Shown one piece after another: positions 1 to 38,535 of a stretch of 38,535 nt of DNA (the stretch's first letter is position 1; every line of letters starts with the position of its first letter). The notes under the pieces were generated by a model that was not told the DNA's origin, did not search any database, and worked only from the letters and a program-made list of their open reading frames with translations. The translations under genes and the position numbers were made by a program. The stretch lies in the IMG/VR virus record IMGVR_UViG_2874968258_000008. One strand, 5' to 3'. The stretch is from a virus (lineage: Duplodnaviria; Heunggongvirae; Uroviricota; Caudoviricetes).

Positions 1-141
1 TTACTGCTTACACTGTAAGAACGCCGCAAACTCCGCTCCCCAGAAGCTCATCCGTATTTCACACAGCGAACCGTGCAACATCCAGATGATGAGGATTGCC
101 GTCACGCAGAACGTGATGGTCGTAAGCGATTTTTGCGACAT
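1..141 (-). CDS. hok: Hok/Gef-family type I toxin peptide (46 aa); below the size cutoff of the supplied ORF track
   Basis: Manual translation of minus strand from ATG (141-139) to TAA (3-1): MSQKSLTTITFCVTAILIIWMLHGSLCEIRMSFWGAEFAAFLQCKQ; N-terminal hydrophobic helix followed by SLCEIR...AAF signature typical of Hok/Gef toxins; overlapped out of frame by a 70-codon ORF (59..271). Confidence 0.5.
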   Translation of the reverse strand: MSQKSLTTITFCVTAILIIWMLHGSLCEIRMSFWGAEFAAFLQCKQ

Positions 142-271
142 AGCACTTGCTCCTTTTCCGGAGAGGCGCTAACCTTTCACTTGTCAAGGTAATGCGGTTA
201 GGGCCTCGGTTAAACAGAGATGTTTTCCGGGGCCTTTCCACATCTGGCCTTCGGGTATTCCCTCCGACCAT
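59..271 (-). CDS. mok: mok-like overlapping reading frame of the hok locus (70 codons)
   Basis: 70-aa ORF in the supplied track overlapping the hok frame in another frame, same arrangement and length as mok in hok/sok loci; function inferred only from architecture. Confidence 0.3.
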   Translation of the reverse strand: MVGGNTRRPDVERPRKTSLFNRGPNRITLTSERLAPLRKRSKCYVAKIAYDHHVLRDGNPHHLDVARFAV

Positions 272-331
272 CAGCCGAAAGGCACCCGCGCGTAATCTAT
301 CGCTTTTTTGTTACTCCGGCAATTCTGCCTG

Positions 332-592
332 TTAATTCTGAGGTAAAGGCAAGCTCATCTGATTGTTTCCCCTGTGTGAAGCTGGCAGATCATGCCACGG
401 GATATCTTCTGAAGAGTGAACGCCGGAGGCGTGTTTTGATGTGAATTTATGGAAAGCTTCCAGTGTTGAGAAGCATACGCCGCATTCCAGATTGTTACAC
501 TGGTAATACTTTTGCCGCACGGTGTTTGAATCATTTTCCGGACGACTGGTGCGGATACGGGCAGATGCGCCACAAAGCGGACAACGGAACAT
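332..592 (-). CDS. ogr: Ogr/Delta-family zinc-finger late-gene transcription activator
   Basis: 86-aa ORF starting MFRCPLCGASARIRTSR...YYQCNNLECGVCF, matching the CxxC...CxxC N-terminus of P2 Ogr; located downstream of D as in P2. Confidence 0.8.
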   Translation of the reverse strand: MFRCPLCGASARIRTSRPENDSNTVRQKYYQCNNLECGVCFSTLEAFHKFTSKHASGVHSSEDIPWHDLPASHRGNNQMSLPLPQN

Positions 593-835: not shown

Positions 836-2338
836 TCATGTTTTGATTTGTGCGCTAATAGAACTTTTCTGTCTTTTCTTCTGCTCTTGAATGTATGTCT
901 GCACCATTTCTGTTATGGTTGAAAATGCACTATGTTCTTCTATAGTTATTTTTAATTTAAATGTTTTAATGACCGGATTGGTAAGGTTATTTGCATCAAC
1001 TCTCACCTCAATTGCACCATTCACTTTCTTTGGTTTGTTGGCTGTATATACGAACAACGGGAATATTTCTTCTTTGACTTGATGACGCCACTCTTCGCAT
1101 TCCAGCGATACAACTTGAACTGGCTCATTTCTCTTTTCTTTATAATAAAAATCGTTTTTATCCCTTTCTGTTGGAGTAAGAGATAACAAAGGACCAATTT
1201 CTTTTGAAATTATACTGGATAGCGGTGTTTCCAAAGCTCCCCCAGCGTAAGGCATTCTTTCTGTTACGCCACATACACTACGCCATTTTCCTTTGGGGGC
1301 GGTAGGGGCTGAAGGTAGGTCAATCCTTTTGCTTTCAGTCAGCTCTTCCATTATCTCCCAATTAAATCCACACAGACGAAAATCTCCTTTTGCTGTAAAT
1401 GTTACCACAGCACGTTCAGCGATAGTATAACCTGTGTTTTGTAATAAAAACGACAGCGGGTAATTTATTGCCTTCGGATTAATATGAGTATGACAGTTTT
1501 TCAGTATTTCTTCACACTGCTTTTTCCAAAGTGGATAATGTTTTTCTTTATAAAGAGAAATATCATCTGCTGATACAGGGAAATACTCCTGTTGACTAAA
1601 TGACTTGATGATTTTTTCTAGTGATTGTGGGGTAGTTTGTTCATTGTCAAAGTTTGTAACCAATGGGAATGCATCCGTTAGTTGACAAAGCAAATTATCA
1701 ACTTCATATTCAGATAAAGCTGTATAATAAGGAAGTACAATATTTAATTGCTCGTCATCGGCTACTTTAATGCTGAAATCGGGCATAGACTGAGTGAATT
1801 GCTTCAGCTTAGCTTCCAGCAATTTAATTTGTTTATCCTTTTCATCTGGCTCAGCAGGAAGCAACCATGAAGAAGGCACTTTATAGCAGATTATATTATG
1901 TTTTATTGCTGAAAAACGTGGACCGCTATCATTGGTAATGATTGCCACCTCCGAATCTGGATCGTCAGCGCAATACCCTGCCGCAATACCAACAAAACGA
2001 TCGTCGGCCTCCTGATAATCCAATTGTTCAGATAACTGTTCACATGGTTTCAGGCTTAGATCCATGGTAAGAAAAACTCGCGGCGAGCGTTCACGAATAA
2101 CAAGAGTCATGTCAGTTGAATCAACTACTTGATTAAATAGGCTAGCAGCCTTCCTTGCTTTTTTGGATAGGCGGGAATTACCTTGCCCTTTCTGGCGGTC
2201 AATCTCTTGCTGAATGGGCCTTGTAATAATGATACATACTTCATCACAAGCAGTAATCTCGGAAAAATTTACCTGCGTCAAGTCCTTGCATTGTAGAAAA
2301 ATGTTTGAGTCTGGGAATAAATACAGCTTTTTGTTCAT
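836..2338 (-). CDS. Cargo protein, 500 aa, N-terminal PIN-like nuclease domain plus about 350 aa of unknown C-terminal region
   Basis: Long ORF in a markedly AT-rich island between D and ogr; N-terminus LYLFPDSNIFL...VCIIITRPIQQEIDR...VAIITNDSGPRF has the spaced acidic residues on predicted strand ends typical of PIN domains; RBS-like GAGG before ATG; no P2 counterpart at this position. Confidence 0.7.
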   Translation of the reverse strand: MNKKLYLFPDSNIFLQCKDLTQVNFSEITACDEVCIIITRPIQQEIDRQKGQGNSRLSKKARKAASLFNQVVDSTDMTLVIRERSPRVFLTMDLSLKPCEQLSEQLDYQEADDRFVGIAAGYCADDPDSEVAIITNDSGPRFSAIKHNIICYKVPSSWLLPAEPDEKDKQIKLLEAKLKQFTQSMPDFSIKVADDEQLNIVLPYYTALSEYEVDNLLCQLTDAFPLVTNFDNEQTTPQSLEKIIKSFSQQEYFPVSADDISLYKEKHYPLWKKQCEEILKNCHTHINPKAINYPLSFLLQNTGYTIAERAVVTFTAKGDFRLCGFNWEIMEELTESKRIDLPSAPTAPKGKWRSVCGVTERMPYAGGALETPLSSIISKEIGPLLSLTPTERDKNDFYYKEKRNEPVQVVSLECEEWRHQVKEEIFPLFVYTANKPKKVNGAIEVRVDANNLTNPVIKTFKLKITIEEHSAFSTITEMVQTYIQEQKKRQKSSISAQIKT

Positions 2339-6111: not shown

Positions 6112-8905
6112 TATCCGGGTCGCTTTCAGCGCCGTTGACAGGCTGACCCGGCCTGCCGAAAACGCCCGCCGCCTGATGGGGCAGTTTGGTGACTCCATCC
6201 AGCGAACGCAGGGGGCGATCAAAAATCTCGAGCGTCAGGCGCGTTCATTTGAGCGCGCCCGTGACGCTGTCAGTAAAGCGGATGCGGGCATCGTGAAAGC
6301 ACGACGCCAGCTTAACGCCCTTAATCAGTTACAACGCACGGGTACAGTGCTCAGCGAAAAACAACAAAAGCTGATGCAGCAGTTAAGCACCCGGCTTGAA
6401 CGCCTGAATGAATCGCGCACACGGGAAATTCAGAAAATGCGGGAACTTGGCGGAGAGCTGAAACGCCACGGCATTTCCCTGACAGGCAGCGATAACACCA
6501 TCCAGCAGGCCATCAGACGCACCGGACAATACAACAACCAGCTTGAACGCGAACGGCGGGCGCTTGCGCGTGTAACGCAGGCGCGTGAGCGGTATTCACG
6601 CGCGCAGGAAACAGCGGGAAAACTGAAAACAGGTGGTGCGCTGGCAACAGGTGCGGCGGCAGCGGGCGGCTATGCTGCCGGGCGTTTTTTGCAGCCCGCT
6701 ATCGGGTTCGGGAAAGAGATGTCCCGTGTTCAGGCACTGACGCGAATCGATAAAAACAGCCCGCAGTTTAAGGCGCTGCGTGAGCAGGCGTTAAAACTTG
6801 GCTCTGAAACGCAGTTCACCGCAGGCGATGCCGCCAGTGGACAGGCATTTCTTGCAATGGCTGGTTTCACACCGCAGGCCATTCAGGCTGCGCTTCCCGG
6901 CGTGCTGAGCATGGCAACGGCTGGCGGTATGGACCTCGGCGAGACGGCGGATATTGGTTCCAATATCCTGACGCAGTTCGGCCTCTCTGCTGACCAGATG
7001 GACCGGGTCGGTGACACACTTACCGCAGCGTTTACCCGTACCAACACTGACCTTCGCGCACTGGGCGAAACCATGAAATATGCAGGTCCGGTGGCGGGTA
7101 AGCTGGGAATATCGCTGGAGCAGGCCGCAGCGATGGCGGGCGTGCTGGCGAAGATGGGTATCAGGGGGAGTGATGCAGGTACAGCGTTGCGTAAAAGCCT
7201 GGCCAATCTGTCATCACCGCCAAAGGCAGCGGCAGAAGCACTGAAAGAGCTGGGGGTGTCAGTTGCTGACGCCAAAGGCAAAATGCGCCCGATGGAGAAT
7301 GTGCTGGCCGATCTCTATAAAGCCACCCGCAAATACGGGGAGGTTGACCGGGTATCGTTCTTTAAGGACATTGCCGGAGAAGAGGCTTTCACATCATTTA
7401 TGGGCCTCGTTGATGCGGCAGGTGACGGCTTCTTAGCCAAACTGAGAAAAGAACTTGAAGGCGCGCGCGGTGAGGCAGAACGCACGGCAAAGGTTATGGC
7501 CAATAACCTTGATGGCAACCTGAAATCACTCGGCAGTGCATGGGAAGGTCTGCGTATTCGCATCAGTGATCTGGTTGACGGTCCGCTGCGTTCTGTCACG
7601 CAGTGGCTCACGCGGGTTGTCTCAAAGGTGACGGCGCTGGCGCAGGCCCACCCGGCACTGACGCGCCAGTTACTGATAGCGGGAGGCGCACTGCTGGCGA
7701 CAACAGCAACGGTTGGTTCGTTGTCTCTGGTTATTGGGGTGCTTCACGGGAAGCTGGCTACGTTGCGTCTCGGTTTTTCTCTCCTGACCGAATCAATGAA
7801 TGTTGTCAGGGTTCTGCCTGCATTATGGGGAATGGTGACGGGTTCCGTTTCTTTACTTGGTGGCGCTATCGGGGCGCTGTTCAGTCCGGTTAGTCTTATC
7901 GTGGCTGCGCTTGCCGGAGCTGCCGTTCTTATCTGGAAATACTGGGATCCCATCAGGGCATTTTTTGCCGGGGTGTTCAGCGGGATTATGGAAAGGCTGA
8001 CCCCGTTGCGCGAAACCTTTGAACGGTTTGGCCCTGTTTTTGATGTCGTGCGCGATGGGATTATTCAGGTCTTTAACTGGTTTAAATCGCTGCTGTCACC
8101 GATGGAGTCCAGCAAGGAAACGCTGGATAAATGTGCCAGTGCTGGCGAGATATTCGGTAACGTTCTTGGCGGTGCGTTACAACTTGTTCTGACACCTGCA
8201 AAAATGCTACTGGATACGCTGGCGTGGATACTTGAAAAACTTGGCGTCCTTCCGGATGAAGCGGAAAGGGCGCGCAAGAAAATCGAAGACGCACAGCGTG
8301 CGGCCATTCTTCAGGACAAGGTTGCCTTGCTTCAGGGGAACCTGGCGAAAATCAATCCGCCGAAGCCTGTGGAAAATGGCAATGGCACCGGAGGTGATAA
8401 ACCCAAAGACAACAAACCGCTCACAGACAGCAATACCGGGACGCTACGCAGACTCAGCAAAATTGCTGATAACACAGGTAAGCTGGTTGATGAGACGAAA
8501 AAACGCATTGGCCCCGGCGATATTGTCTTTAAGAACCTGCCCCGCGCACTTGCTGTTCGTGGGGAGTGGCAGGAGCGGAAGATTGCGCAGGTCAGTAAGC
8601 CTGCCCCCGCAATTAATATCACACCCGTGGTCCCGGCTCCGCTGCCTCCGGCGCTGGTCCCTGTTGTTGCGGCCAGCTCCCGCCCGGTGGCGGAGGCCAT
8701 ACGCTCTCCAGTGGCATCAGTTCCTGTAACTTCCCGTAACCGGGAGCCTGTTGCCTCCGGATTTGGTGGTGAAATTCATGTTCATCTGCATAACGTTGTT
8801 ACGCAGAATCCCCGCGAACTGGCGAAACTGGTCGGTGAAATGGTCAGGGCAGAAATGGAACGGCGCGCCCGTGCCGGGCGTGGCAGTTTTTACGATAAAG
8901 ATTGA
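6089..8905 (+). CDS. T: Tail tape measure protein gpT
   Basis: About 940-aa ORF, Ala/Gly-rich with central hydrophobic segments, follows E/E'; start could be ATG 6089 or 6098 (ORF track opens at 6062). Confidence 0.85.
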   Translation: MQTMKTLDIRVAFSAVDRLTRPAENARRLMGQFGDSIQRTQGAIKNLERQARSFERARDAVSKADAGIVKARRQLNALNQLQRTGTVLSEKQQKLMQQLSTRLERLNESRTREIQKMRELGGELKRHGISLTGSDNTIQQAIRRTGQYNNQLERERRALARVTQARERYSRAQETAGKLKTGGALATGAAAAGGYAAGRFLQPAIGFGKEMSRVQALTRIDKNSPQFKALREQALKLGSETQFTAGDAASGQAFLAMAGFTPQAIQAALPGVLSMATAGGMDLGETADIGSNILTQFGLSADQMDRVGDTLTAAFTRTNTDLRALGETMKYAGPVAGKLGISLEQAAAMAGVLAKMGIRGSDAGTALRKSLANLSSPPKAAAEALKELGVSVADAKGKMRPMENVLADLYKATRKYGEVDRVSFFKDIAGEEAFTSFMGLVDAAGDGFLAKLRKELEGARGEAERTAKVMANNLDGNLKSLGSAWEGLRIRISDLVDGPLRSVTQWLTRVVSKVTALAQAHPALTRQLLIAGGALLATTATVGSLSLVIGVLHGKLATLRLGFSLLTESMNVVRVLPALWGMVTGSVSLLGGAIGALFSPVSLIVAALAGAAVLIWKYWDPIRAFFAGVFSGIMERLTPLRETFERFGPVFDVVRDGIIQVFNWFKSLLSPMESSKETLDKCASAGEIFGNVLGGALQLVLTPAKMLLDTLAWILEKLGVLPDEAERARKKIEDAQRAAILQDKVALLQGNLAKINPPKPVENGNGTGGDKPKDNKPLTDSNTGTLRRLSKIADNTGKLVDETKKRIGPGDIVFKNLPRALAVRGEWQERKIAQVSKPAPAINITPVVPAPLPPALVPVVAASSRPVAEAIRSPVASVPVTSRNREPVASGFGGEIHVHLHNVVTQNPRELAKLVGEMVRAEMERRARAGRGSFYDKD

Positions 8906-29546: not shown

Positions 29547-29858
29547 TCATTCAGGAAATAATGCCCGGATATTCCCTGCTATCTGACTGGTTATCTGTGC
29601 GGTTGGTACTGGCTGTGGCACGGGGCGTTCTGTCCTGGTTTGTGTCACCGATAACGCCTCATCGTCAGCCCATGCAGCCAGTCGGTAAGCCTCTGCTGGA
29701 TTCATTTTCAGAAGTGCCAGCCCGGCCAGAAAAGCCACGCGTTGGCCGCTTTTGCGGGCTTCTGGTGTAAGGCTGCCCAGCCAGGCGCATGCTTCGCTTT
29801 CGTTCTTGACGGCCGCAGGCTTCAGATAGAAACTTATCCGTCTGGTTGGTGTCGTCAT
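29547..29858 (-). CDS. parR: ParR-like centromere-binding adaptor protein
   Basis: 103-aa frame from MTTPTRRISFYLKP (ORF track extends to 29993); alignable from memory to plasmid R1 ParR (IAFKLNPD.., ..AALTAGLALYRQDP.., ..NILRSLFP); starts 4 nt after the parM stop. Confidence 0.65.
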   Translation of the reverse strand: MTTPTRRISFYLKPAAVKNESEACAWLGSLTPEARKSGQRVAFLAGLALLKMNPAEAYRLAAWADDEALSVTQTRTERPVPQPVPTAQITSQIAGNIRALFPE

Positions 29859-29862
29859 TGGT

Positions 29863-30822
29863 TTACTCCTTGTCCATTGCGTACAGCCCATTAACCAGAG
29901 CAAACTGTGGCACCCCGTCCGCGATGAAAGTCGCATTAACTCCGCAGGCTTCGCGGATAGCGGGTGCCACAATCTCCGCCCCTCCACCGACAACCATCAC
30001 CCGCCCGTAACCCGAAAAACCCGCCAGCGCGCGGATCACGCGTTGTTTCAGTGTTTCTTCCTTTTCACGAATAACCGCCATCAGGCTGGCGTAATGCGCG
30101 TCATTGTGGATGTGCTGGCGCAGCCAGGCTTCATCATGGCGATGTTCGATAATGGTATTGGCGATGTGGTGACTGGTGCGCATACCGTTAGTGGCCATCA
30201 CCGACAGTACGGCATCGGCCATCAGAGAAACGCCTACGTGTGGATCGCAAAACACCTGGCTGATACCTGCCAGTTGCCCCTGAACCTTTGCCACATCCAG
30301 CGTGGTTCCGCCCAAATCCACAATCAGCAGGGATTCAAACGGACTCATGTCAGCCAGTGCCTTAAAGCCAGCCGGAATGGATTCAGGCATAACCCGCACG
30401 TTACGGATAGTGAATGCTTCGCCGTTCTGGTACTCCACCGGGCGCATAACGTTCGCTTTTTTGCGGTTGATGTTGGCCATGTCCGGCTGTGCGTTTGTGT
30501 CGAAATACTCGCTCAGTGGCAGGGTGACAACCACATCCACCTCCTGTGGCGTGATGCCTGATTTGACCAGCGCGTGATGAATGGCAATGACATTTACATC
30601 GCTGTACTGGTATTGCGTGTCGGTTGTCTGGACAAAGCGATCGCTGACCGGATCAAAACCATAGCGCACGCCATCAAGCATGTAGTTCGCGGGCTGCATG
30701 CCACCGAACGGCGCAGACCATTCCGACTTGAAGCTGTTCGGGCTGATGGCGTTGCGGCGTTCGCCGTTCTCAGTCCATGCCAGCTTGATGTTGGTGGAGC
30801 CGTCGTCGATACAAATTTTCAT
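29863..30822 (-). CDS. parM: ParM/StbA-family actin-like segregation ATPase
   Basis: 319 aa; actin-fold motifs DDGSTNIK (phosphate 1), IVDLGGTTLDVA (phosphate 2), VVGGGAE (adenosine); extended similarity to R1 ParM along the whole length. Confidence 0.8.
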   Translation of the reverse strand: MKICIDDGSTNIKLAWTENGERRNAISPNSFKSEWSAPFGGMQPANYMLDGVRYGFDPVSDRFVQTTDTQYQYSDVNVIAIHHALVKSGITPQEVDVVVTLPLSEYFDTNAQPDMANINRKKANVMRPVEYQNGEAFTIRNVRVMPESIPAGFKALADMSPFESLLIVDLGGTTLDVAKVQGQLAGISQVFCDPHVGVSLMADAVLSVMATNGMRTSHHIANTIIEHRHDEAWLRQHIHNDAHYASLMAVIREKEETLKQRVIRALAGFSGYGRVMVVGGGAEIVAPAIREACGVNATFIADGVPQFALVNGLYAMDKE

Positions 30823-30853: not shown

Positions 30854-30892
30854 TTTACGGGATTCTGAAATCCCGTTTTTGCCTGTTTTGTG
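30854..30892. repeat. Hairpin-containing direct repeat, copy 1, upstream of parM
   Basis: TTTACGGGATTCTGAAATCCCGTTTTTGCCTGTTTTGTG; near-duplicate of 30927..30965, which encodes the C-terminus of A. Confidence 0.5.
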
Positions 30893-30898
30893 CGCGCT

Positions 30899-33721
30899 TC
30901 ATATATCGCTGCGCGTTTTTTGCTCATTTACGGGATTCGTGAGTCCCGTTTCTGTCTGTTTTTTGTTTCCACTGGTCAGGCCACCCCGCAGCAGGTCTGC
31001 TTTGCGGCGGGCGCGTTCAGTGGTTTCACTGATTCTCTGTGCGTGCTCTGCGTCGCGGATGGCGCGCAGCATGTCAGAAAGCACGGTAACGGGTGTTTTC
31101 ATGGTGTTCTGGTCCTGCTGAAGTGTGGATGCCAGGCGTGCGGCGGCTTCAGGGTCTGATGCCCCCAGCTGTGTCAGATAGCTGGCGACCGGGTTATGGC
31201 GGATCTCCGTGCTGCTTACGCCATGATTACGGCTCAGGCGCTGCCAGAGCTGCGTGATTCGGCTGTCCGGGCGGGTATCCGGTTTGCGTACAATTTCAAA
31301 TCCCTGCGGTGCAATGATGCTGCCGTCAACGTACAGACTGCCGCCCCGTAACAGGTGCTGCATCTGTTGTTCACCGATATGCAGGCCGAGAGATTCAGCA
31401 GACTCCCGCCATTCTTTAGCGAGTAATTCGTGGTTATCAGGCAAAGGCCGCTGCTGTTTGCGGCTCTGTGTCCAGCTCTGCATTTCATCACTGCTGTTTT
31501 TTGCCTGTTTGTCACGAAGCGAACGCATCAGCGCCCGGCGTTCGTGCCGTTTCAGTGAGCGCATCCATTCATCCACATCAACGCCGTCAGGGAGCTGCGG
31601 CCACGGTGCTGGCCGTTCTTCCGGCTGTTCTGTCCCGTTGTTGTCCGTTTCCTGTACACGGGGACAGTTATTGCCACGAGTCCAAGGGGCGGCAGGGCCG
31701 CCCTGAAGGTCAAAACCATTTTCGCGGGCGCTGTCTTCCGCTTCCGGTTTGCGTCTTACCAGCTTCCAGTTATCCGGATGCGTGCACACACGGGAGGATT
31801 CCCCGATGAGTGGTGACCAGATCCCGTAAATCTGTACGCTCTGTTCGCCGTAATCGTTCAGCTCATCGGCGAGGTCGTAGGCGGTGCGAATCAGGTAGTC
31901 TTTGCGTGGAACAAGTACGCCGCCCTGTTTCTCTATGTAGGTGGCAAAACATCCGGCATCAGCGGCGGCAAGAACCGCATCCATTGCGTCATCCTTCAGC
32001 CGTTGCGGGCCTTCCGGGTTGCGTGCCATCTGGCTGGCAAGGCGGCGCAGTTCACGCCATACCTGGCAGGAGGGGATGCCAAAGAACTGGAACTGGCGGA
32101 CCCGGTGAAGGCGCGCCCAGCCGATGGCGCGTTCCACGCTCTCGGCCATTGATTTTCCGGTTTCGTGGTCAACGCGTGGCTTGCCCGTTTTCGGGTCGAT
32201 GCCATCCACGGCGCGGCTGTCCAGGTTTTTCCCGATGTAGGTGGCGATGTAGCTGGTTGGCGTGCCTTTTGAGCCGTCTACATACTCCGCCTTAAAGCGC
32301 GGAGTTATGTCATCGCCCAGCTCGTGACGATCTTCCTGAATGGCAATATCGCGGGTGTGGGACACAATGGTGTCGATTTCTTCCGGATGAGCAAAGACCA
32401 TCATATGCCAGTGCACGGTGCCGTCATGGTGAGGCTCCGCCGTGCGGATGCCATACCAGCGCAGGCCGTCGCGGTTCAGTTTTTTGCGGACCGTCGCAAA
32501 AAACGTGTTAACCAGGTAATCGCTGGAGTCGCGCATTGTGGCCCCGTTCCATTTGGGATTCGGATGACCGTTCTCCGTTGTGGCGTGGTATTTTGACGGG
32601 CAGGTGACAGTCAGAAACACCGCTTTGTCGCCACGGGCTTCGGCCAGAAGTTCCAGCCCCTTCATGGTGGCCATCATTTCTGCCTTACGGTGAACCGGGT
32701 TACTTACTCCCGCGTAATACACCGTCTCGAGATCAATCGTGAACCCGTCTTCATTTTCCAGCATGAAACTTTTCAGGAAATCGCGTGTTTTCTCGCGCTG
32801 TGCGCGAAACTCGCTTAACGCGTCCTGGCTCAGATAGGGCGATGTTTTTCTGGAAACCAGACAGGCGGCGCGAAGTTGTTCTTCTCTCCACTCGCAACGT
32901 AACAGCCACAGTTTGCGTTTCCACCATTCCGCACAGGTCAGGCGAAGGATTGCGCCCGGCAGCAGTTCTGTGTCCGGTTCGTGCCTCCGGTCTTTGTCTG
33001 TTGTCAGTGCGTCATAATGCGGAGGCATGGCGTGTAAGTGTAACGCCATGCGGGCCAGCATCTGATACGCCTTCAGCGTTACATCCATGGTCAGCTCGCC
33101 ATCAGTCGCGCCAAAACCATCGCAGAGTTTTTCGAAGGTGCTGCTGAACATCGCCGCCGTCATGGTGGCCAGCGTCTGTATCTGGTGTTTGTTGAGTTGC
33201 GGCAGGTAAAGCAAATCGTCCAGGCGTTCACGTCCGGCAAGGGAGCGATAACCCGGTGTCAGCCAGTGTCCGTCAGTGCGATCCAGACGTTCGAATATTT
33301 TGCGCAGGGTTCCGCGTGCATAGCGTTCCGCCTGCCAGCTCTTTTTGCCTTTCCGGCGATCGGCTTCCTGTTTTTTGCGCAGGAAGGAGAGGTGGCGAAT
33401 AAGCGGATCGCGCAGATAGGACGGCAGCAGGCGCAGCGAGGCCATGGCTTCATCCACCGCGCCGTGTGCCTGTTTTCTGGCGTCTCCTGCCAGTGTGATG
33501 GTTTTGTCCTGTTTTTCCTGTGCGTCCAGGCTTTTATTAATCAGGTTGCCCAGTGGCGTGGCGGAGAACGCCGCATCAGCCATTTCCTGGCGGCGCTCGT
33601 TCTCTGCCCGGTGGGCATCCAGCCAGGAGGAAAGCGCGGATTCAGGAGCGGGGATCCCCGTTCCTTCACGCCCCACTGCGTGGCGCGGTTGTTGCCAGTC
33701 CCTGATGTACTCTGCCGTCAT
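30899..33721 (-). CDS. A: Replication initiation endonuclease gpA (rolling-circle HUH family)
   Basis: 940-aa ORF with HUH metal-binding motif GTVHWHMMVFAHP and downstream Tyr-containing region, as in P2 A. Confidence 0.85.
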   Translation of the reverse strand: MTAEYIRDWQQPRHAVGREGTGIPAPESALSSWLDAHRAENERRQEMADAAFSATPLGNLINKSLDAQEKQDKTITLAGDARKQAHGAVDEAMASLRLLPSYLRDPLIRHLSFLRKKQEADRRKGKKSWQAERYARGTLRKIFERLDRTDGHWLTPGYRSLAGRERLDDLLYLPQLNKHQIQTLATMTAAMFSSTFEKLCDGFGATDGELTMDVTLKAYQMLARMALHLHAMPPHYDALTTDKDRRHEPDTELLPGAILRLTCAEWWKRKLWLLRCEWREEQLRAACLVSRKTSPYLSQDALSEFRAQREKTRDFLKSFMLENEDGFTIDLETVYYAGVSNPVHRKAEMMATMKGLELLAEARGDKAVFLTVTCPSKYHATTENGHPNPKWNGATMRDSSDYLVNTFFATVRKKLNRDGLRWYGIRTAEPHHDGTVHWHMMVFAHPEEIDTIVSHTRDIAIQEDRHELGDDITPRFKAEYVDGSKGTPTSYIATYIGKNLDSRAVDGIDPKTGKPRVDHETGKSMAESVERAIGWARLHRVRQFQFFGIPSCQVWRELRRLASQMARNPEGPQRLKDDAMDAVLAAADAGCFATYIEKQGGVLVPRKDYLIRTAYDLADELNDYGEQSVQIYGIWSPLIGESSRVCTHPDNWKLVRRKPEAEDSARENGFDLQGGPAAPWTRGNNCPRVQETDNNGTEQPEERPAPWPQLPDGVDVDEWMRSLKRHERRALMRSLRDKQAKNSSDEMQSWTQSRKQQRPLPDNHELLAKEWRESAESLGLHIGEQQMQHLLRGGSLYVDGSIIAPQGFEIVRKPDTRPDSRITQLWQRLSRNHGVSSTEIRHNPVASYLTQLGASDPEAAARLASTLQQDQNTMKTPVTVLSDMLRAIRDAEHAQRISETTERARRKADLLRGGLTSGNKKQTETGLTNPVNEQKTRSDI
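30927..30965. repeat. Hairpin-containing direct repeat, copy 2, inside the 3' end of gene A
   Basis: TTTACGGGATTCGTGAGTCCCGTTTCTGTCTGTTTTTTG; encodes ...KKQTETGLTNPVNEQ at the A C-terminus. Confidence 0.5.
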
Positions 33722-36155: not shown

Positions 36156-36467
36156 ATGTCAATAGAGATATCAAAGAAGCTAAAAGCAATTCGAGAATCT
36201 GAGGGGCTTAGTCAGGCAAAGTTCGCGGATTCAATAGGTATTGCGGTTGGTACGGTTAAGCAATACGAGACTGGTATTCGAGGTGTGGGAACGGAGGTTT
36301 TACTGAAAATCACAATGCACCCGGAATTTAAAAAATACACTACGTGGTTGATGAGTAACGAAACAAATGAGGCTGCTGGGCAGATCAGTCCTTCTCTCTC
36401 CCCTGATGGGCCAGAAAACACATCGTCTTCTCAAAAATCCCGCAAGACTGGCACACAGCCCGGCTAA
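36156..36467 (+). CDS. C: Immunity repressor C (P2 C-like, HTH)
   Basis: Frame from MSIEISKKLKAIRESEGLSQAKFADSIGIAVGTVKQYETG; C-terminal ...HPEFKKYTTWLMSNE...GQISPSLS closely parallels P2 C (...TPQFTKYTLWFMTNQ...GQIAPALA). Confidence 0.8.
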   Translation: MSIEISKKLKAIRESEGLSQAKFADSIGIAVGTVKQYETGIRGVGTEVLLKITMHPEFKKYTTWLMSNETNEAAGQISPSLSPDGPENTSSSQKSRKTGTQPG

Positions 36468-36516
36468 TCATGGAACGCTGGGGGCATGGTGGTCTTGTAA
36501 CGCTGGGGCTTCACGA

Positions 36517-37494
36517 ATGAGCATAAAATCAATTCCGGGAGGGTATCTTCTTGACATGCGTCCTGAGGGGCGTAAAGGCAAACGCATTCGCAAAAAATTT
36601 AAAACGAAATCGGATGCAGTTTTATATGAGCGGTGGGTGCTGGCGCAACAGCATAACAATGAGTGGAAAGGAAACTCCATTGATCGCCGTCCGCTGTCAG
36701 TGCTTATTGACTTGTGGTGGAAATACCACGGCCAGCTAATGAAGTCAGGGCATAACACGCGCCTTAAATTGCTGCGCTTGAGTGAGGCAATGGATGACCC
36801 GTGCGTGCATAAACTTAATACAACGATGCTCACCGAGCTACGTGTGTCCAGGATAGAGCAGGGGATACAGCCCAGCACCATAAATCGAGAGATTGGGGCG
36901 TTAAGCGCGATGTTTACCGCACTCATCTCATCCGGCCATTTTCTTAACGATAACCCCGTTCAAGGCCTTAAAGGAATGAAGGTTAACGAGCGTGAAATGG
37001 GATATCTGAGTAAGTCTGAATGTGTTCAGTTGCTGGATGCACTGGCTGAAAATCCCGATGAACGGCTGGCCGTCGAAATCCTTCTGTCGACCGGGGCGCG
37101 ATGGGGCGAGGTAGCGGCACTGGAGCAGCGCCGTGTTCTTCATTGTCGAATCACTTTTTCAAAAACGAAGAACAGCAAAAACCGTACCGTTCCTATTTCT
37201 GAAAGCCTGTTTGAAAAGATCAAAAAACGGGGCGGGAAACTGGTGTTTCCGACGCTGGATTATTCATTGGTTCGCGATGTCATCAAAACGGTCGCACCTG
37301 ATGTTCCTGACGGCCAGGCTGTTCATGCGCTGCGCCACACCTTCGCCAGTCATTTCATGATGAACGGCGGCAATATTCTGACGCTCCAGAAAATTCTGGG
37401 GCACGCAAAGATTCAGACAACGATGATTTATGCCCATCTTGCGCCGGATTACTTGCAGGATGCGGTGAGGTTTAATCCCTTGGGAGGAATGTAA
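36517..37494 (+). CDS. int: Tyrosine integrase (P2 Int-like)
   Basis: 325-aa frame from MSIKSIPGGYLLDMRPEGRKGKRIRKKF (P2 Int: MAIKKLDDGRYEVDIRPTGRNGKRIRRKF); catalytic region ...HALRHTFASHFMMNGGNILTLQKILGH...MIYAH. Confidence 0.9.
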   Translation: MSIKSIPGGYLLDMRPEGRKGKRIRKKFKTKSDAVLYERWVLAQQHNNEWKGNSIDRRPLSVLIDLWWKYHGQLMKSGHNTRLKLLRLSEAMDDPCVHKLNTTMLTELRVSRIEQGIQPSTINREIGALSAMFTALISSGHFLNDNPVQGLKGMKVNEREMGYLSKSECVQLLDALAENPDERLAVEILLSTGARWGEVAALEQRRVLHCRITFSKTKNSKNRTVPISESLFEKIKKRGGKLVFPTLDYSLVRDVIKTVAPDVPDGQAVHALRHTFASHFMMNGGNILTLQKILGHAKIQTTMIYAHLAPDYLQDAVRFNPLGGM

Positions 37495-37496
37495 CT

Positions 37497-37997
37497 ATGG
37501 AAATAAAAAAACCTACAAAAAAAGAGTTATATGACTATTTACTATCGAAATATATAGAAGATAAATGCAAAGAAGAAGCTGATGAAATCAATAAGAAGTC
37601 GATGAGTCGTGTCAAAAAACATAAAGAGCGGCTGATGGAGATTACGCCAGAAATCTTCTTCCGTTTCTTGTCTGAGAAGGGGGTCTCCAGTGTCTGCCCT
37701 TCATGTGGATCGTCGCGATTATCTGTTCCAGAAAGTATGGATCTTTGCTGGGATAAAAATAAGAAACCAGAAAATTTTAACAATCTACCCCTGGAGGAAC
37801 AGAGTGAGTTAATTAAAGAGAACATAAAGCATTATGTATCTTATGCTTTTTTGGGTGATGTTAAGAGCATACCTGATATGCGCAAAACTTATTACACGCT
37901 GCATTGCCTGAATTGTGGTTACCTGAGCCTTTATCGTACGTCTGCGGTGCTGAAGTGGTTGGAGAAAGACAAAGCGCAGGATGGTGATAATGGGTAA
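37497..37997 (+). CDS. Hypothetical protein (166 aa) with two CxxC pairs, very AT-rich
   Basis: ORF starting 2 nt after the int stop; CPSC...CLNC cysteine pairs; strongly AT-biased codon usage unlike the phage core. Confidence 0.55.
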   Translation: MEIKKPTKKELYDYLLSKYIEDKCKEEADEINKKSMSRVKKHKERLMEITPEIFFRFLSEKGVSSVCPSCGSSRLSVPESMDLCWDKNKKPENFNNLPLEEQSELIKENIKHYVSYAFLGDVKSIPDMRKTYYTLHCLNCGYLSLYRTSAVLKWLEKDKAQDGDNG

Positions 37998-38097
37998 TGT
38001 AGCAAGAAATCTTTTCGGTAATTCAGCAGGTAGTGTGTCGCATTCTGAGCGTGATGTGCTTTATCATGGTGGCGATGGCGGCAGTAGTGGAGGCGGA

Positions 38098-38535
38098 ATG
38101 TCAGATAAACTTGAAAGGCGAATTGAGCGGCTCGAAGGTGATTTATCGCTAACAAGAAACGACCTTGCGACGCTTGCTGAACGCACTACAAACCTCTCAA
38201 CTAAAGCCGATGTTGGTGAGGTGAAAGGTGAACTCAAAGCAGACATAGCACATCTGAAAGGTGATCTTGAATGCGATATTGCGAATCTGAAAGGTGAGCT
38301 TAAATCTGATACAGCTAACCTGAAAGAGCAGCTCAAATCAGACATTAACAGCCTGAAGGGTGAGCTTACCGAAGCGATGGATAAACGCTTTGACAAGATT
38401 ATGGATGAGATGAATCGGCGGTTTGACAAGGTTGATGATAATACGAAGTGGCGTTGGAGTGGCATTATTGTGCCAGTGTGCACAACCATTTTCACAGCGG
38501 CGGTTGCTGTATTTGTTGCTAAATTTGTTGGCTGA
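38098..38535 (+). CDS. Coiled-coil protein with C-terminal transmembrane anchor (possibly XhlA/DUF1640-like)
   Basis: Frame from ATG 38098 with GGAGG RBS (ORF track opens at 37981); heptad-like repeats KGELKADIAHLKGDLECDIANLKGELKSDTANLKEQLKSD and hydrophobic tail IIVPVCTTIFTAAVAVFVAKFVG. Confidence 0.5.
   Translation: MSDKLERRIERLEGDLSLTRNDLATLAERTTNLSTKADVGEVKGELKADIAHLKGDLECDIANLKGELKSDTANLKEQLKSDINSLKGELTEAMDKRFDKIMDEMNRRFDKVDDNTKWRWSGIIVPVCTTIFTAAVAVFVAKFVG

Follow-up and report, generated by a model that had tools for sequence, protein, structure and literature searches.

A probable hok/sok-type toxin-antitoxin cassette beside ogr in a P88-like prophage

The left end of the 38,535-nt stretch of viral DNA analyzed here (IMG/VR record IMGVR_UViG_2874968258_000008; hereafter the window) very probably belongs to a complete hok/sok-type type I toxin-antitoxin (TA) cassette. 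The cassette comprises positions 1-331 of the window together with about 125 nt to the left of it, and forms accessory cargo between ogr and the attachment (att) site of a P88-like prophage at the ihfA terminator. An earlier note on this DNA had described a Hok/Gef type I locus at the left end of the window, and this overall observation holds, with the features lying where the note had put them. The element as a whole is a P88-like prophage (P2 family; Peduoviridae, Xuanwuvirus) integrated in the E. coli chromosome, and the cassette is an ordinary, already catalogued passenger of such prophages.

Results

The toxin gene

The toxin open reading frame (ORF) occupies positions 1..141 on the minus strand and translates to the 46-aa peptide MSQKSLTTITFCVTAILIIWMLHGSLCEIRMSFWGAEFAAFLQCKQ. 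Pfam and PHROG both support its assignment to the Hok/Gef family: PF01848 (HOK_GEF) scores 29 bits against a cutoff of 22 (E 8e-7), with residues 9-44 of the peptide aligned to profile positions 7-42 of 42, and the match to PHROG 251 spans the entire peptide (80.8 bits, E 1e-22). The Hok/Gef-type peptide read earlier from 141 to 1 is thus confirmed in both coordinates and family, the HOK_GEF profile scoring above its cutoff. The peptide has one N-terminal hydrophobic helix, a C..T...LCE core, and the SLCEIR motif. In an alignment with Hok, HokA-E, and PndA, in which the R1 Hok and HokC sequences were confirmed against database records, residues C12, T14, and L26 never vary and C27, E28, and E37 rarely do. 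The Shine-Dalgarno sequence AAGGAG, read from the sequence 8 nt before the ATG (150..155, minus), is nearly invariant in an alignment of 37 sequences. Conservation of the peptide in related genomes, on which the earlier reading depended, was also observed: of 92 homologous loci, 91 have an intact ORF (46-47 aa), and a contig end cuts the last. The dN/dS ratio of hok is 0.03-0.5, below 1, and by this comparison the peptide is under purifying selection.

HokA is the closest curated relative, at 43% identity. The NCBIfam HokA model (NF007290) gives 34.1 bits, far short of its equivalog cutoff of 89 bits, so the window Hok is not an orthologue; the Hok subfamily model NF007279 gives 21.6 bits against a cutoff of 73. 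As in HokA, both cysteines (C27 and C44) are hard-coded in the window peptide, and hard-coded cysteines remove the requirement for RNA editing for toxicity (10.1101/2025.08.07.668861). The Hok catalogue of Escalera-Maurer et al. (10.1101/2025.08.07.668861) covers the peptide in its cluster 72, where the window Hok is one residue (T8A) off the catalogued variant 72_1621. This variant appears in Table S2 of that preprint among 45 tested constructs and is not one of the three homologues named there as nontoxic, from which we infer that a peptide differing from the window Hok by one residue is toxic. The preprint covers coding sequences only, leaving aside Mok, Sok, and mRNA structure, and it names neither P2-like or P88 phages nor an ogr-adjacent position. 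Public annotation of the gene exists as well, since RefSeq names the exact protein (WP_000078923.1) a "Hok/Gef family protein."

The hok mRNA and its leader

A generic sigma-70 scan of the hok region returned no promoter at its threshold, and the promoters were then assigned through homology to R100 and hokC. The hok promoter inferred from the sequence lies at 294..322 (minus), with a -35 hexamer TTGCCG (322..317), a 17-nt spacer, and a -10 hexamer TAGATT (299..294); 8 of its 12 positions agree with the consensus, which puts it just below the threshold of the scan. It is kept in P88, Chuche, and phiSM, and takes the form TTGCCC/TAAATT in the Stx-phage copy. The putative 5' end of the hok mRNA, at about position 287, is where position 1 of Rfam model RF01794 falls, and on R100 hok and K-12 hokC this model likewise begins at the 5' end known for the mRNA. 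The tac-like element GGGUGCCUUUCGGCU occupies 273..287 (minus).

From 287 to 128 on the minus strand, the leader shows homology to the Rfam family "sok" (RF01794) that is significant though subthreshold: a permissive search of 900 nt gave 48.4 bits (E 1.3e-9), short of the gathering score, 59; a whole-window Rfam search at gathering thresholds gave zero matches. In calibration, the model scored 88.9 bits on R100 and 118.3 bits on hokC, in both cases on the hok-sense strand from mRNA +1 to the hok ATG. The hok transcription unit runs past the left edge of the window. Its post-stop hairpin, fbi element, and terminator lie 10-115 nt to the left of position 1 and were read from identical genomes only, the terminator being found at 7913..7886 of locus L001 on the hok strand.

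The 410-nt hok mRNA folds with a free energy of -176.7 kcal/mol (z -6.6), and nucleotides 1-15 (tac) pair with nucleotides ~340-356 (fbi) in both the minimum-energy and the centroid folds. The fold-back structure that had been predicted earlier is therefore found as 5'-3' pairing within the mRNA fold and is accompanied by covariation in 37 homologues. Across these 37 distinct homologues, 95.2% of the alignment cells are paired, against 36-46% when the partners are slid, and 16 pairs carry double-sided changes versus 5.1 ± 1.6 in shuffles (0 of 500 shuffles reach 16); these covariation statistics are inflated because most of the homologues are closely related, and one of the aligned sequences was itself the source of the structure under test. 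The diversity comes mainly from Escherichia albertii, S. diarizonae, C. braakii, and the Stx-phage copy, and the IMG/VR loci included are the 80 closest, found with an alignment of five homologues. The tac/fbi helix (helix 1) is 97% paired in the 37 homologues, with few unpaired cells and with G-U wobbles as its pair-keeping changes, and the aligned sequences of S. diarizonae and C. braakii differ in it in a compensatory manner.

The antisense RNA

The promoter pattern that Sok shares with R100, TTGCNC-N17-TANCCT, has a single match in the 38.5 kb, with 0.05 expected by chance. This match is the predicted Sok-type antisense promoter at 147..175 (plus), with a -35 hexamer TTGCTC (147..152) that agrees with the consensus at only 3 of 6 positions, a 17-nt spacer, and a -10 hexamer TAACCT (170..175). 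In the 37 distinct homologues the -10 hexamer is invariant and the -35 hexamer nearly so, one Citrobacter sequence aligning differently, and the geometry of the promoter agrees with that of annotated K-12 sokC. The predicted Sok-like antitoxin RNA, of about 60 nt, would extend over 182..243 (plus), with a single-stranded 5' tail at 182-199, a hairpin at 200-236 (-26.4 kcal/mol, z -4.0), and a short U-run. The earlier note had proposed looking for a sok-type promoter on the plus strand, and this promoter and its stable hairpin are the candidates that answer to it. Because the standard pairs of the Sok stem are all Watson-Crick, with no G-U, the stem should be able to form on both strands; double-sided changes occur at three of its pairs (helix 5). 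The leader varies most in two patches, the 5' tail and the loop of the predicted Sok, and these are the places where specificity between coresident copies would be set.

The 70-codon overlapping frame

An open frame of 70 codons at 59..271 (minus) had been described as mok-like. The frame is present, and it lies in the same relative register as R100 mok, which also has 70 codons, but its identity as mok did not hold up. From the ATG at mRNA +17 it is open in 53 of 92 loci, the window included, while 26 of the 92 have no in-frame start upstream of hok, a stop codon closing the frame; the closed versions include phages P88 and Chuche, the Stx-phage copy, and copies in Salmonella and Citrobacter. 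No Pfam or PHROG match was found for the frame, and it is probably not a gene. An in-frame mok resembling the RefSeq annotation of K-12 mokC was considered as well and rejected, because a TAG codon in invariant columns interrupts the hok frame 30 nt upstream. The Hok subfamily found here is probably independent of a mok leader ORF, unlike that of R1.

Position in the prophage

The late-gene activator gene ogr lies directly upstream of hok, at 332..592 (minus; Pfam Ogr_Delta, 52 bits), as expected from the earlier placement of hok beside ogr near the prophage end. The cassette begins 10 nt past the end of ogr, and the interval from the ogr stop to the hok transcription start site holds no terminator-like site. 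The attachment junction had been assumed to coincide with the window edge; in a genome with an identical 900-bp end, it is instead found 264 bp further left, where a 25-bp att repeat lies at the ihfA terminator, 264 bp from the cassette. Hence, hok is prophage cargo. The window edge is a gene-call cut rather than an attachment junction, and the provirus boundary should be moved about 290 bp leftward, to the 25-bp repeat. In the one genome with an identical end that was examined in detail, the insertion lies between ihfA and btuC and is flanked by a 25-bp direct repeat that bounds a 32.3-kb insert containing hok. K-12 carries the empty site, and homology to K-12 stops at the ihfA terminator. 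A chromosomal hok lying outside the prophage is ruled out by this end of K-12 homology and by the repeat-bounded insert. The region between ogr and att is variable cargo, holding a methyltransferase gene with Com, TagO, or other genes in relatives. On the other side of ogr, the window encodes a PIN-domain protein.

The phage and its parMR module

P2-type genes in the window were recognized through the Pfam domains Ogr_Delta and Phage_GPA and through integrase domains, and the window is 93-98% identical to P88 and its relatives at both loci tested. A prophage of E. coli O111, on which structural genes are annotated, aligns to the window in blocks of 89-97% identity. Among complete E. coli genomes, none aligns with the right-hand 25 kb of the window at above 97% identity over 85% of its length, and one IMG/VR contig is identical to the first 2.5 kb. 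The tyrosine integrase gene (36367..37494, plus; Int_N 99 bits, Phage_integrase 72 bits) is intact. The element also carries parMR, as the earlier note had claimed: parM lies at 29863..30822 (minus; StbA_N 275 bits, ParM C-terminal domain 230 bits), and a parR/StbB-like gene follows directly downstream (29547..29858, minus; Plasmid_stab_B 81 bits). The module is present at 94-98% identity in P88, PhiR44_2, P884B11, phiSM, Chuche, 520873, and 503458, and the hok/sok unit adjoins ogr in P88, Chuche, PhiR44_2, P884B11, 500465-2, and phiSM; hok/sok and parMR are standard equipment of the P88-like lineage. The R1 parC site consists of two sets of five iterons. The region upstream of parM in the window is unlike this arrangement, holding only two copies of a 25-bp palindromic motif.

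Distribution of the cassette

Outside the P88-like phages, Stx phages carry an 81%-identical copy adjoining lom, and plasmids carry copies at about 87% identity. The Stx-phage copy equals catalogue entry 72_1589 of cluster 72, likewise a tested construct that is not among the three nontoxic ones (10.1101/2025.08.07.668861). A relative is encoded on 255 IMG/VR contigs. Matches to the cassette were found in 1,555 of 5,426 complete E. coli genomes (29%), where the RefSeq label is again "Hok/Gef family protein."

Discussion

The arrangement described above suggests a mechanism modeled on R1 hok/sok. The weak promoter at 322..294 would drive an hok mRNA of about 400 nt, in which tac (287..273) at the 5' end would pair with the 3' fbi element and hold the molecule in a closed, untranslated state until slow 3' trimming opened it. 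A short, unstable antisense RNA from the promoter within the leader (147..175, plus) would pair with the leader (182..243), and this pairing would block expression and/or trigger cleavage. Once antisense synthesis stopped, the 46-aa membrane peptide would be made and the inner membrane damaged. Where the RNAs start and stop, that Sok is unstable, and that the mRNA is processed are all points taken by analogy from R1 hok/sok.

The likeness to R1 and R100 is close in layout. From the 5' end, both have a weak hok promoter, tac, stem-loops, and a Sok-type promoter motif on the opposite strand within the leader (TTGCxC, 17 nt, TAxCCT in both), followed in the same order by AAGGAG, the Hok ORF, a post-stop hairpin, fbi, and a terminator; in both, too, the peptide has a single helix and the SLCEIR motif. 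In contrast, the peptides are only 28% identical (46 aa here versus 52 aa), the leader is about 25 nt shorter than that of R100 and scores 48 rather than 89 bits against RF01794, and the carrier is a phage rather than a plasmid. The Sok 5' end is placed about 41 nt upstream of the hok ATG, compared with about 49 nt for annotated K-12 sokC. The R100 mok gene starts 58 nt before hok and ends at the hok stop, and it has no conserved counterpart here. Since mok is essential in R1 and is not conserved in these homologues, the canonical control circuit is incompletely reproduced, and with no conserved mok frame in cluster 72, Sok may exert its control differently than in R1.

As to what the cassette does for the phage, the most likely role, held with about even confidence, is that of an addiction module that penalizes loss of the phage genome. 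A main service in the lytic cycle, like that of hokW-sokW, is possible but distinctly less probable: Sok would be lost or outtitrated after induction, possibly by read-through from ogr, and Hok would permeabilize the membrane and speed release. hokW-sokW of the Stx2 prophage Sp5 is likewise a prophage-borne hok/sok, belongs to the same PHROG ("MokW-like host killing"), and provides the experimentally supported model for such cassettes, phage release being halved without it (PMC8621323). The close spacing between ogr and the cassette, uninterrupted by any terminator-like site, fits this role, as does the retention of the cassette in phages that were recovered as particles or after induction (Chuche, P88, and phiSM). 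HokW, however, is a different Hok paralogue, a HokD/RelF-like protein of 51 aa (MKQQKAM...) with a different, R1-like leader; the 81%-identical Stx-phage copy is a separate hok gene beside lom and not hokW. Moreover, ordinary plasmids, which lack a lytic cycle, carry the cassette as well, and these phages already possess holin, endolysin, and LysB/C genes. An addiction role and a contribution to lysis are in any case compatible with each other.

The cassette could also be abortive-infection cargo that shields the lysogen from other phages. R1 hok/sok excludes T4, the cassette falls within the variable region between ogr and att, and the PIN-domain protein is encoded across ogr from it; we nonetheless consider a primarily antiphage function unlikely. 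It is less likely still, indeed improbable, that the locus is silent or decaying, with a toxin gene but a nonfunctional RNA circuit, as are several chromosomal hok loci of K-12. The subthreshold leader and the unconserved mok would fit such a fate, as would the inability of chromosomal hokA, hokB, and hokC to mediate postsegregational killing (work cited in 10.1101/2025.08.07.668861), and the prophage of O111 strain 11128 that carries an identical cassette is itself degraded, with IS1203 in gpA and a truncated integrase. Against this, phages, Stx phages, and plasmids alike retain the ORF, the two promoters, tac/fbi, and the terminator in intact form, the peptide is under purifying selection, and the near-identical 72_1621 is probably toxic. 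Furthermore, whereas K-12 hokA and hokC are flanked or disrupted by insertion sequences (IS), the phage-borne unit in the window is intact and free of IS.

The earlier note had gone further and suggested that the two plasmid-type modules mark the element as something other than a plain integrated prophage, namely, a P2-like phage-plasmid maintained as an episome by hok/sok and parMR. We regard this as very unlikely. Both modules are indeed present and kept throughout the P88 lineage, and the lineage includes records (CP025901, CP025923, and CP025874) with genome-assembly-style accessions and host-strain names. The only hint of an episomal form is PLSDB record NZ_CP148288.1, a closed circle of 34,461 bp that comprises a complete P88-like genome, hok, parMR, gpA, and int included; because this "plasmid" phage is 99.9% identical to one integrated in the chromosome of a sister strain, the circle may be excised replicative DNA. 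By contrast, the integrase in the window is intact, each of the 59 complete genomes with a match to at least 80% of the first 900 bp of the window carries the sequence on its chromosome, and 2,004 of 2,021 cassette copies in complete E. coli genomes are chromosomal. The att duplication between ihfA and btuC, seen in one genome, and the empty site in K-12 also argue for integration. The close relatives P88 and phiSM are inducible prophages, having come from chromosomal prophages by induction or spontaneous release (PMC5285337, PMC6456863). On the question of integration or episome that the earlier note had raised, the genomes thus speak for chromosomal integration, and the circular form is limited to the one record.

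The significance of the locus is slight beyond its correct annotation. Cluster 72, abundant (about 29% of complete E. coli genomes) and devoid of a conserved mok, may be of interest chiefly to specialists in type I TA systems. A further, speculative reading, to which we assign very little probability, is that P88-like Peduoviridae are facultative phage-plasmids, in which a circle replicated by gpA following excision or infection would be partitioned by ParMR and stabilized by a mok-independent hok/sok. If so, lysogeny could take an episomal form besides the integrated one, ParMR would use the two palindromes upstream of parM as its centromere, and coresident copies would fall into incompatibility-like specificity classes set by the hypervariable 5' tail of Sok. 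The tail operon and gpD are divergently oriented, which could suggest an inversion, but P88 and Chuche have the same gene order, so this arrangement is normal for the lineage.

Toxin gene and precedent

At the left end of the window lies a complete and probably functional hok/sok-type cassette of a common, widespread kind that has been annotated and catalogued before. Its toxin ORF (1..141, minus strand) encodes a 46-aa peptide, MSQKSLTTITFCVTAILIIWMLHGSLCEIRMSFWGAEFAAFLQCKQ, that scores 29 bits against Pfam HOK_GEF (curated threshold, 22) and, along its entire length, matches PHROG 251 ("MokW-like host killing"; E 1e-22); HokA is the closest NCBIfam model, at 34 bits far below its equivalog cutoff of 89. 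The ogr gene (332..592, minus strand) lies directly upstream, and RefSeq labels E. coli loci identical over 900 bp as "Hok/Gef family protein," ogr, and "PIN domain protein." Together with an overlapping 70-codon ORF at 59..271 (minus strand), these coordinates and family matches indicate that the features described in the earlier note, a Hok/Gef toxin beside ogr with a mok-like frame, are real and correctly placed. The hok ORF is intact (46 to 47 aa) in 91 of the 92 homologous loci collected, whose IMG/VR share is the best 80 of 255 relatives; the remaining one passes its contig end. Its dN/dS is 0.03 to 0.5.

A 2025-26 preprint on Hok diversity counted 6,290 homologues in IMG/VR and found hok genes to be four-fold enriched in prophages. 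Its Table S2 includes the window peptide with T8A (construct 72_1621) and the Stx-phage copy (72_1589), both within a set of 45 tested homologues in which only three others were non-toxic, while Mok, Sok, and mRNA structure were deliberately outside its analysis (10.1101/2025.08.07.668861). Gene, family, and toxicity alike are thus previously documented; new here are the RNA anatomy, the placement with respect to att, and the finding on mok. The cassette would most likely serve host addiction to the prophage. Alternatively, it may help lysis, by analogy with hokW-sokW of prophage Sp5, a toxin-antitoxin pair of type I which aids phage release (PMC8621323), HokW being a different paralogue from the window peptide.

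RNA anatomy and the mok-like frame

On the minus strand, a predicted hok promoter (-35 TTGCCG, 322..317; 17-nt spacer; -10 TAGATT, 299..294) precedes a predicted transcript start at ~287, beginning GGGUGCC, and a Shine-Dalgarno sequence, AAGGAG (155..150), precedes the hok ATG at 141. Rfam RF01794 aligns from 287 to 128 on the hok strand (E 1.3e-9; 48.4 bits, under the gathering score of 59). In calibration on canonical loci, the model scored 88.9 bits on R100 hok/sok and 118.3 bits on K-12 hokC, in both cases on the hok-sense strand and spanning mRNA +1 through the hok ATG. Whatever its name, RF01794 models the hok leader, of which the window leader is a divergent relative. Genomes identical over the first 900 bp supply the sequence to its left, where hairpin GACGGGGGAGCAATCCCCCGTC, the element CCGGAUAAGGCACCC, complementary to the mRNA 5' end, and an intrinsic terminator (7913..7886 in comparison record L001) lie 3' of the hok stop. 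The 410-nt transcript is predicted to fold at -176.7 kcal/mol (z -6.6) with nt 1-15 paired to nt ~340-356, which is the pairing of 5' end (tac) and 3' fold-back element (fbi) that is a hallmark of hok mRNAs. Over 37 distinct homologues, 95.2% of cells in this structure were paired versus 36 to 46% in slid controls, and double-sided changes occurred at 16 pairs versus 5.1 ± 1.6 in shuffles, figures to be read with a structure derived from one alignment member and with most of the 37 closely related.

The plus strand carries a Sok-type promoter (147..175: -35 TTGCTC, 147..152; 17-nt spacer; -10 TAACCT, 170..175) that repeats the R100 Sok layout of TTGCGC, 17 nt, and TATCCT; the pattern common to both has one match in the 38.5-kb window versus 0.05 by chance. 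Among homologues, the -10 hexamer does not vary, and the -35 hexamer hardly does. Placed by R100 and annotated K-12 sokC, transcription would start at ~182-183 and yield a ~60-nt RNA, its 5' tail single-stranded and followed by a strong hairpin (-26.4 kcal/mol; z -4.0); the earlier note had proposed a search for an antisense promoter and fold-back on this strand. Leader variation clusters in two patches, ~185-198 and ~213-225 (columns ~117-133 and 86-100 of alignment A4), the rest being highly conserved. These patches match the predicted Sok 5' tail and hairpin loop, and tail and loop usually determine target specificity in antisense systems. Some genomes carry up to 7 cassette copies, which, with the patchy leader variation, is consistent with distinct Sok specificity classes.

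The mok-like frame exists as described, with the 70 codons and register of R100 mok. R100 mok, in the +1 register, begins 58 nt ahead of hok and runs to the hok stop, whereas the window frame starts 130 nt upstream of hok, at mRNA +17 within the tac helix, and ends just 27 codons into hok. It is open from the +17 ATG in 53/92 homologues and has an alternative in-frame start in 13; in the other 26, including P88, Chuche, the Stx-phage copy, Salmonella, and C. braakii, a stop codon shuts it and no in-frame start lies upstream of hok. In P88, Chuche, and the other phage copies inspected, the interrupting stops fall in the variable leader patch at ~185-198. Since the frame is closed in these 26 homologues and has no match in Pfam or PHROG, we conclude from the comparison that this Hok subfamily has no conserved mok; the open frame in the window is probably incidental. 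An in-frame hok extension, as in RefSeq K-12 mokC, is ruled out by a TAG 30 nt upstream in invariant alignment columns. RefSeq annotates K-12 mokC (352-561 in record L096) as an in-frame N-terminal extension of hokC, whereas R100 mok (293-505 in L098) is in the +1 frame, so "mok" is non-uniform even across textbook loci.

Prophage position and spread

Over its first 900 bp, the window shows 100% identity to the chromosomes of numerous E. coli of EHEC type (O111 and O26 among them); across most of its length, the window differs by ~3 to 4% from every complete genome. In O111:H- strain 11128, the locus sits between ihfA and btuC, which are adjacent in K-12, and K-12 homology ends at the ihfA terminator. 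The 25-bp repeat GGCCGCTCTGCGGCCTTTTTTCTTT is single-copy in K-12 and bounds a 32,268-bp insert on either side in O111, with the hok stop codon 264 bp inward of the repeat. Hok is thus cargo, and the prophage that carries the cassette next to ogr is P88-like and, judging from the O111 strain with the identical end, inserted at the ihfA terminator. The earlier note had expected the attachment junction at the window edge. However, the window starts exactly at the hok stop and ends (38535) exactly at the last ORF's stop, and the same hok stop ends dozens of IMG/VR contigs (among L015 to L094); the edge thus reflects provirus calling that trims at gene boundaries and is not the attachment junction. 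This trim removes the hok 3' UTR (fbi and terminator) as well as the att repeat. In Salmonella (S. enterica, L009; S. diarizonae, L013), too, the cassette is near the ihfA-pheT region, at a distance of between a few hundred and ~1,200 bp, so the attachment site seems to be in use across genera.

The promoter-to-fbi unit is a discrete homology block, with 93 to 97% identity in P2-family phages obtained by isolation or induction (P88, Chuche, PhiR44_2, P884B11, 500465-2, and Citrobacter phiSM). It lies directly beside ogr in the three neighborhoods read (Chuche, phiSM, and a 34.5-kb circular copy); in P88, where ogr is unannotated, it adjoins the gpD tail gene. Stx phages carry a copy ~81% identical adjoining lom, and ordinary plasmids carry copies ~87% identical. 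A relative is encoded on 255 IMG/VR contigs, and at least one copy occurs in 1,555 of 5,426 complete E. coli genomes (29%). Species representatives place the cassette only in Escherichia, Salmonella, and Citrobacter, bar three contigs labeled Planococcaceae MAG, Vagococcus sp., and Xanthomonas pisi (L008, L010, and L012), whose near-identical hok loci are most likely assembly contamination.

Plasmid-type maintenance

The earlier note also proposed a P2-like element maintained plasmid-style by hok/sok and parMR. Both partition genes are genuine (parM, 29863..30822; ParR/StbB-like gene, 29547..29858), and the PLSDB record NZ_CP148288.1 is a closed 34,461-bp circle comprising an entire P88-like genome. 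However, the integrase is intact in the window, the locus is chromosomal in all 59 genomes with a match to 80% or more of the first 900 bp, the one examined in detail shows an att duplication, and chromosomes account for 2,004 of the 2,021 cassette copies counted across complete genomes. The sister strain Z1323HEC0067 (NZ_CP148378.1), moreover, has a 99.9%-identical phage integrated in its chromosome, and both P88 and phiSM are prophages that can be induced or are active spontaneously (PMC5285337, PMC6456863). The circle may thus be excised replicative DNA, and an episomal state, though conceivable in general, is unsupported for this element. As parMR is 94 to 98% identical in every P88-like phage examined and hok/sok is likewise conserved, both modules are typical of the lineage. 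The "plasmid" NZ_CP148288.1 encodes hok, ogr, parMR, gpA, cox, and int.

Just upstream of parM, a 25-bp palindromic motif, AAACGGGAYTYMSGAATCCCGTAAA, occurs twice (30854-30878 and 30927-30951), one copy falling inside the gpA 3' end. The pair is a candidate ParR-binding centromere, although R1 parC, with two sets of five iterons, is far more complex.

Other cargo varies. Between ogr and gpD, a 500-aa ORF (836-2338, minus strand) has an N-terminal PIN_4 domain (34 bits), while NCBIfam gives no match and PHROG none that is significant; in P88 and Chuche the corresponding site is without a gene, which makes the ORF an extra cargo insertion in the window's prophage. Relatives differ in what lies between hok and att, 3' of fbi (L016, 2716 onward; L005, 1456-2398; L007, 165-1395): a zinc-ribbon/membrane protein, a Com and DNA methyltransferase pair, or TagO, which makes hok the inner edge of a variable region. 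Past the integrase, ORFs at 37497-37997 (plus strand; PHROG 4293) and 37981-38535 (plus strand; PHROG 9415, coiled-coil-looking) replace a single small gene in 11128, indicating a second variable cargo slot at the other att end. The 11128 prophage (L002, 9674-13969), with its identical hok end, is degraded, its integrase truncated and IS1203 within gpA, whereas the window's copy is full-length (gpA, 30899-33721; integrase, 36367-37494).
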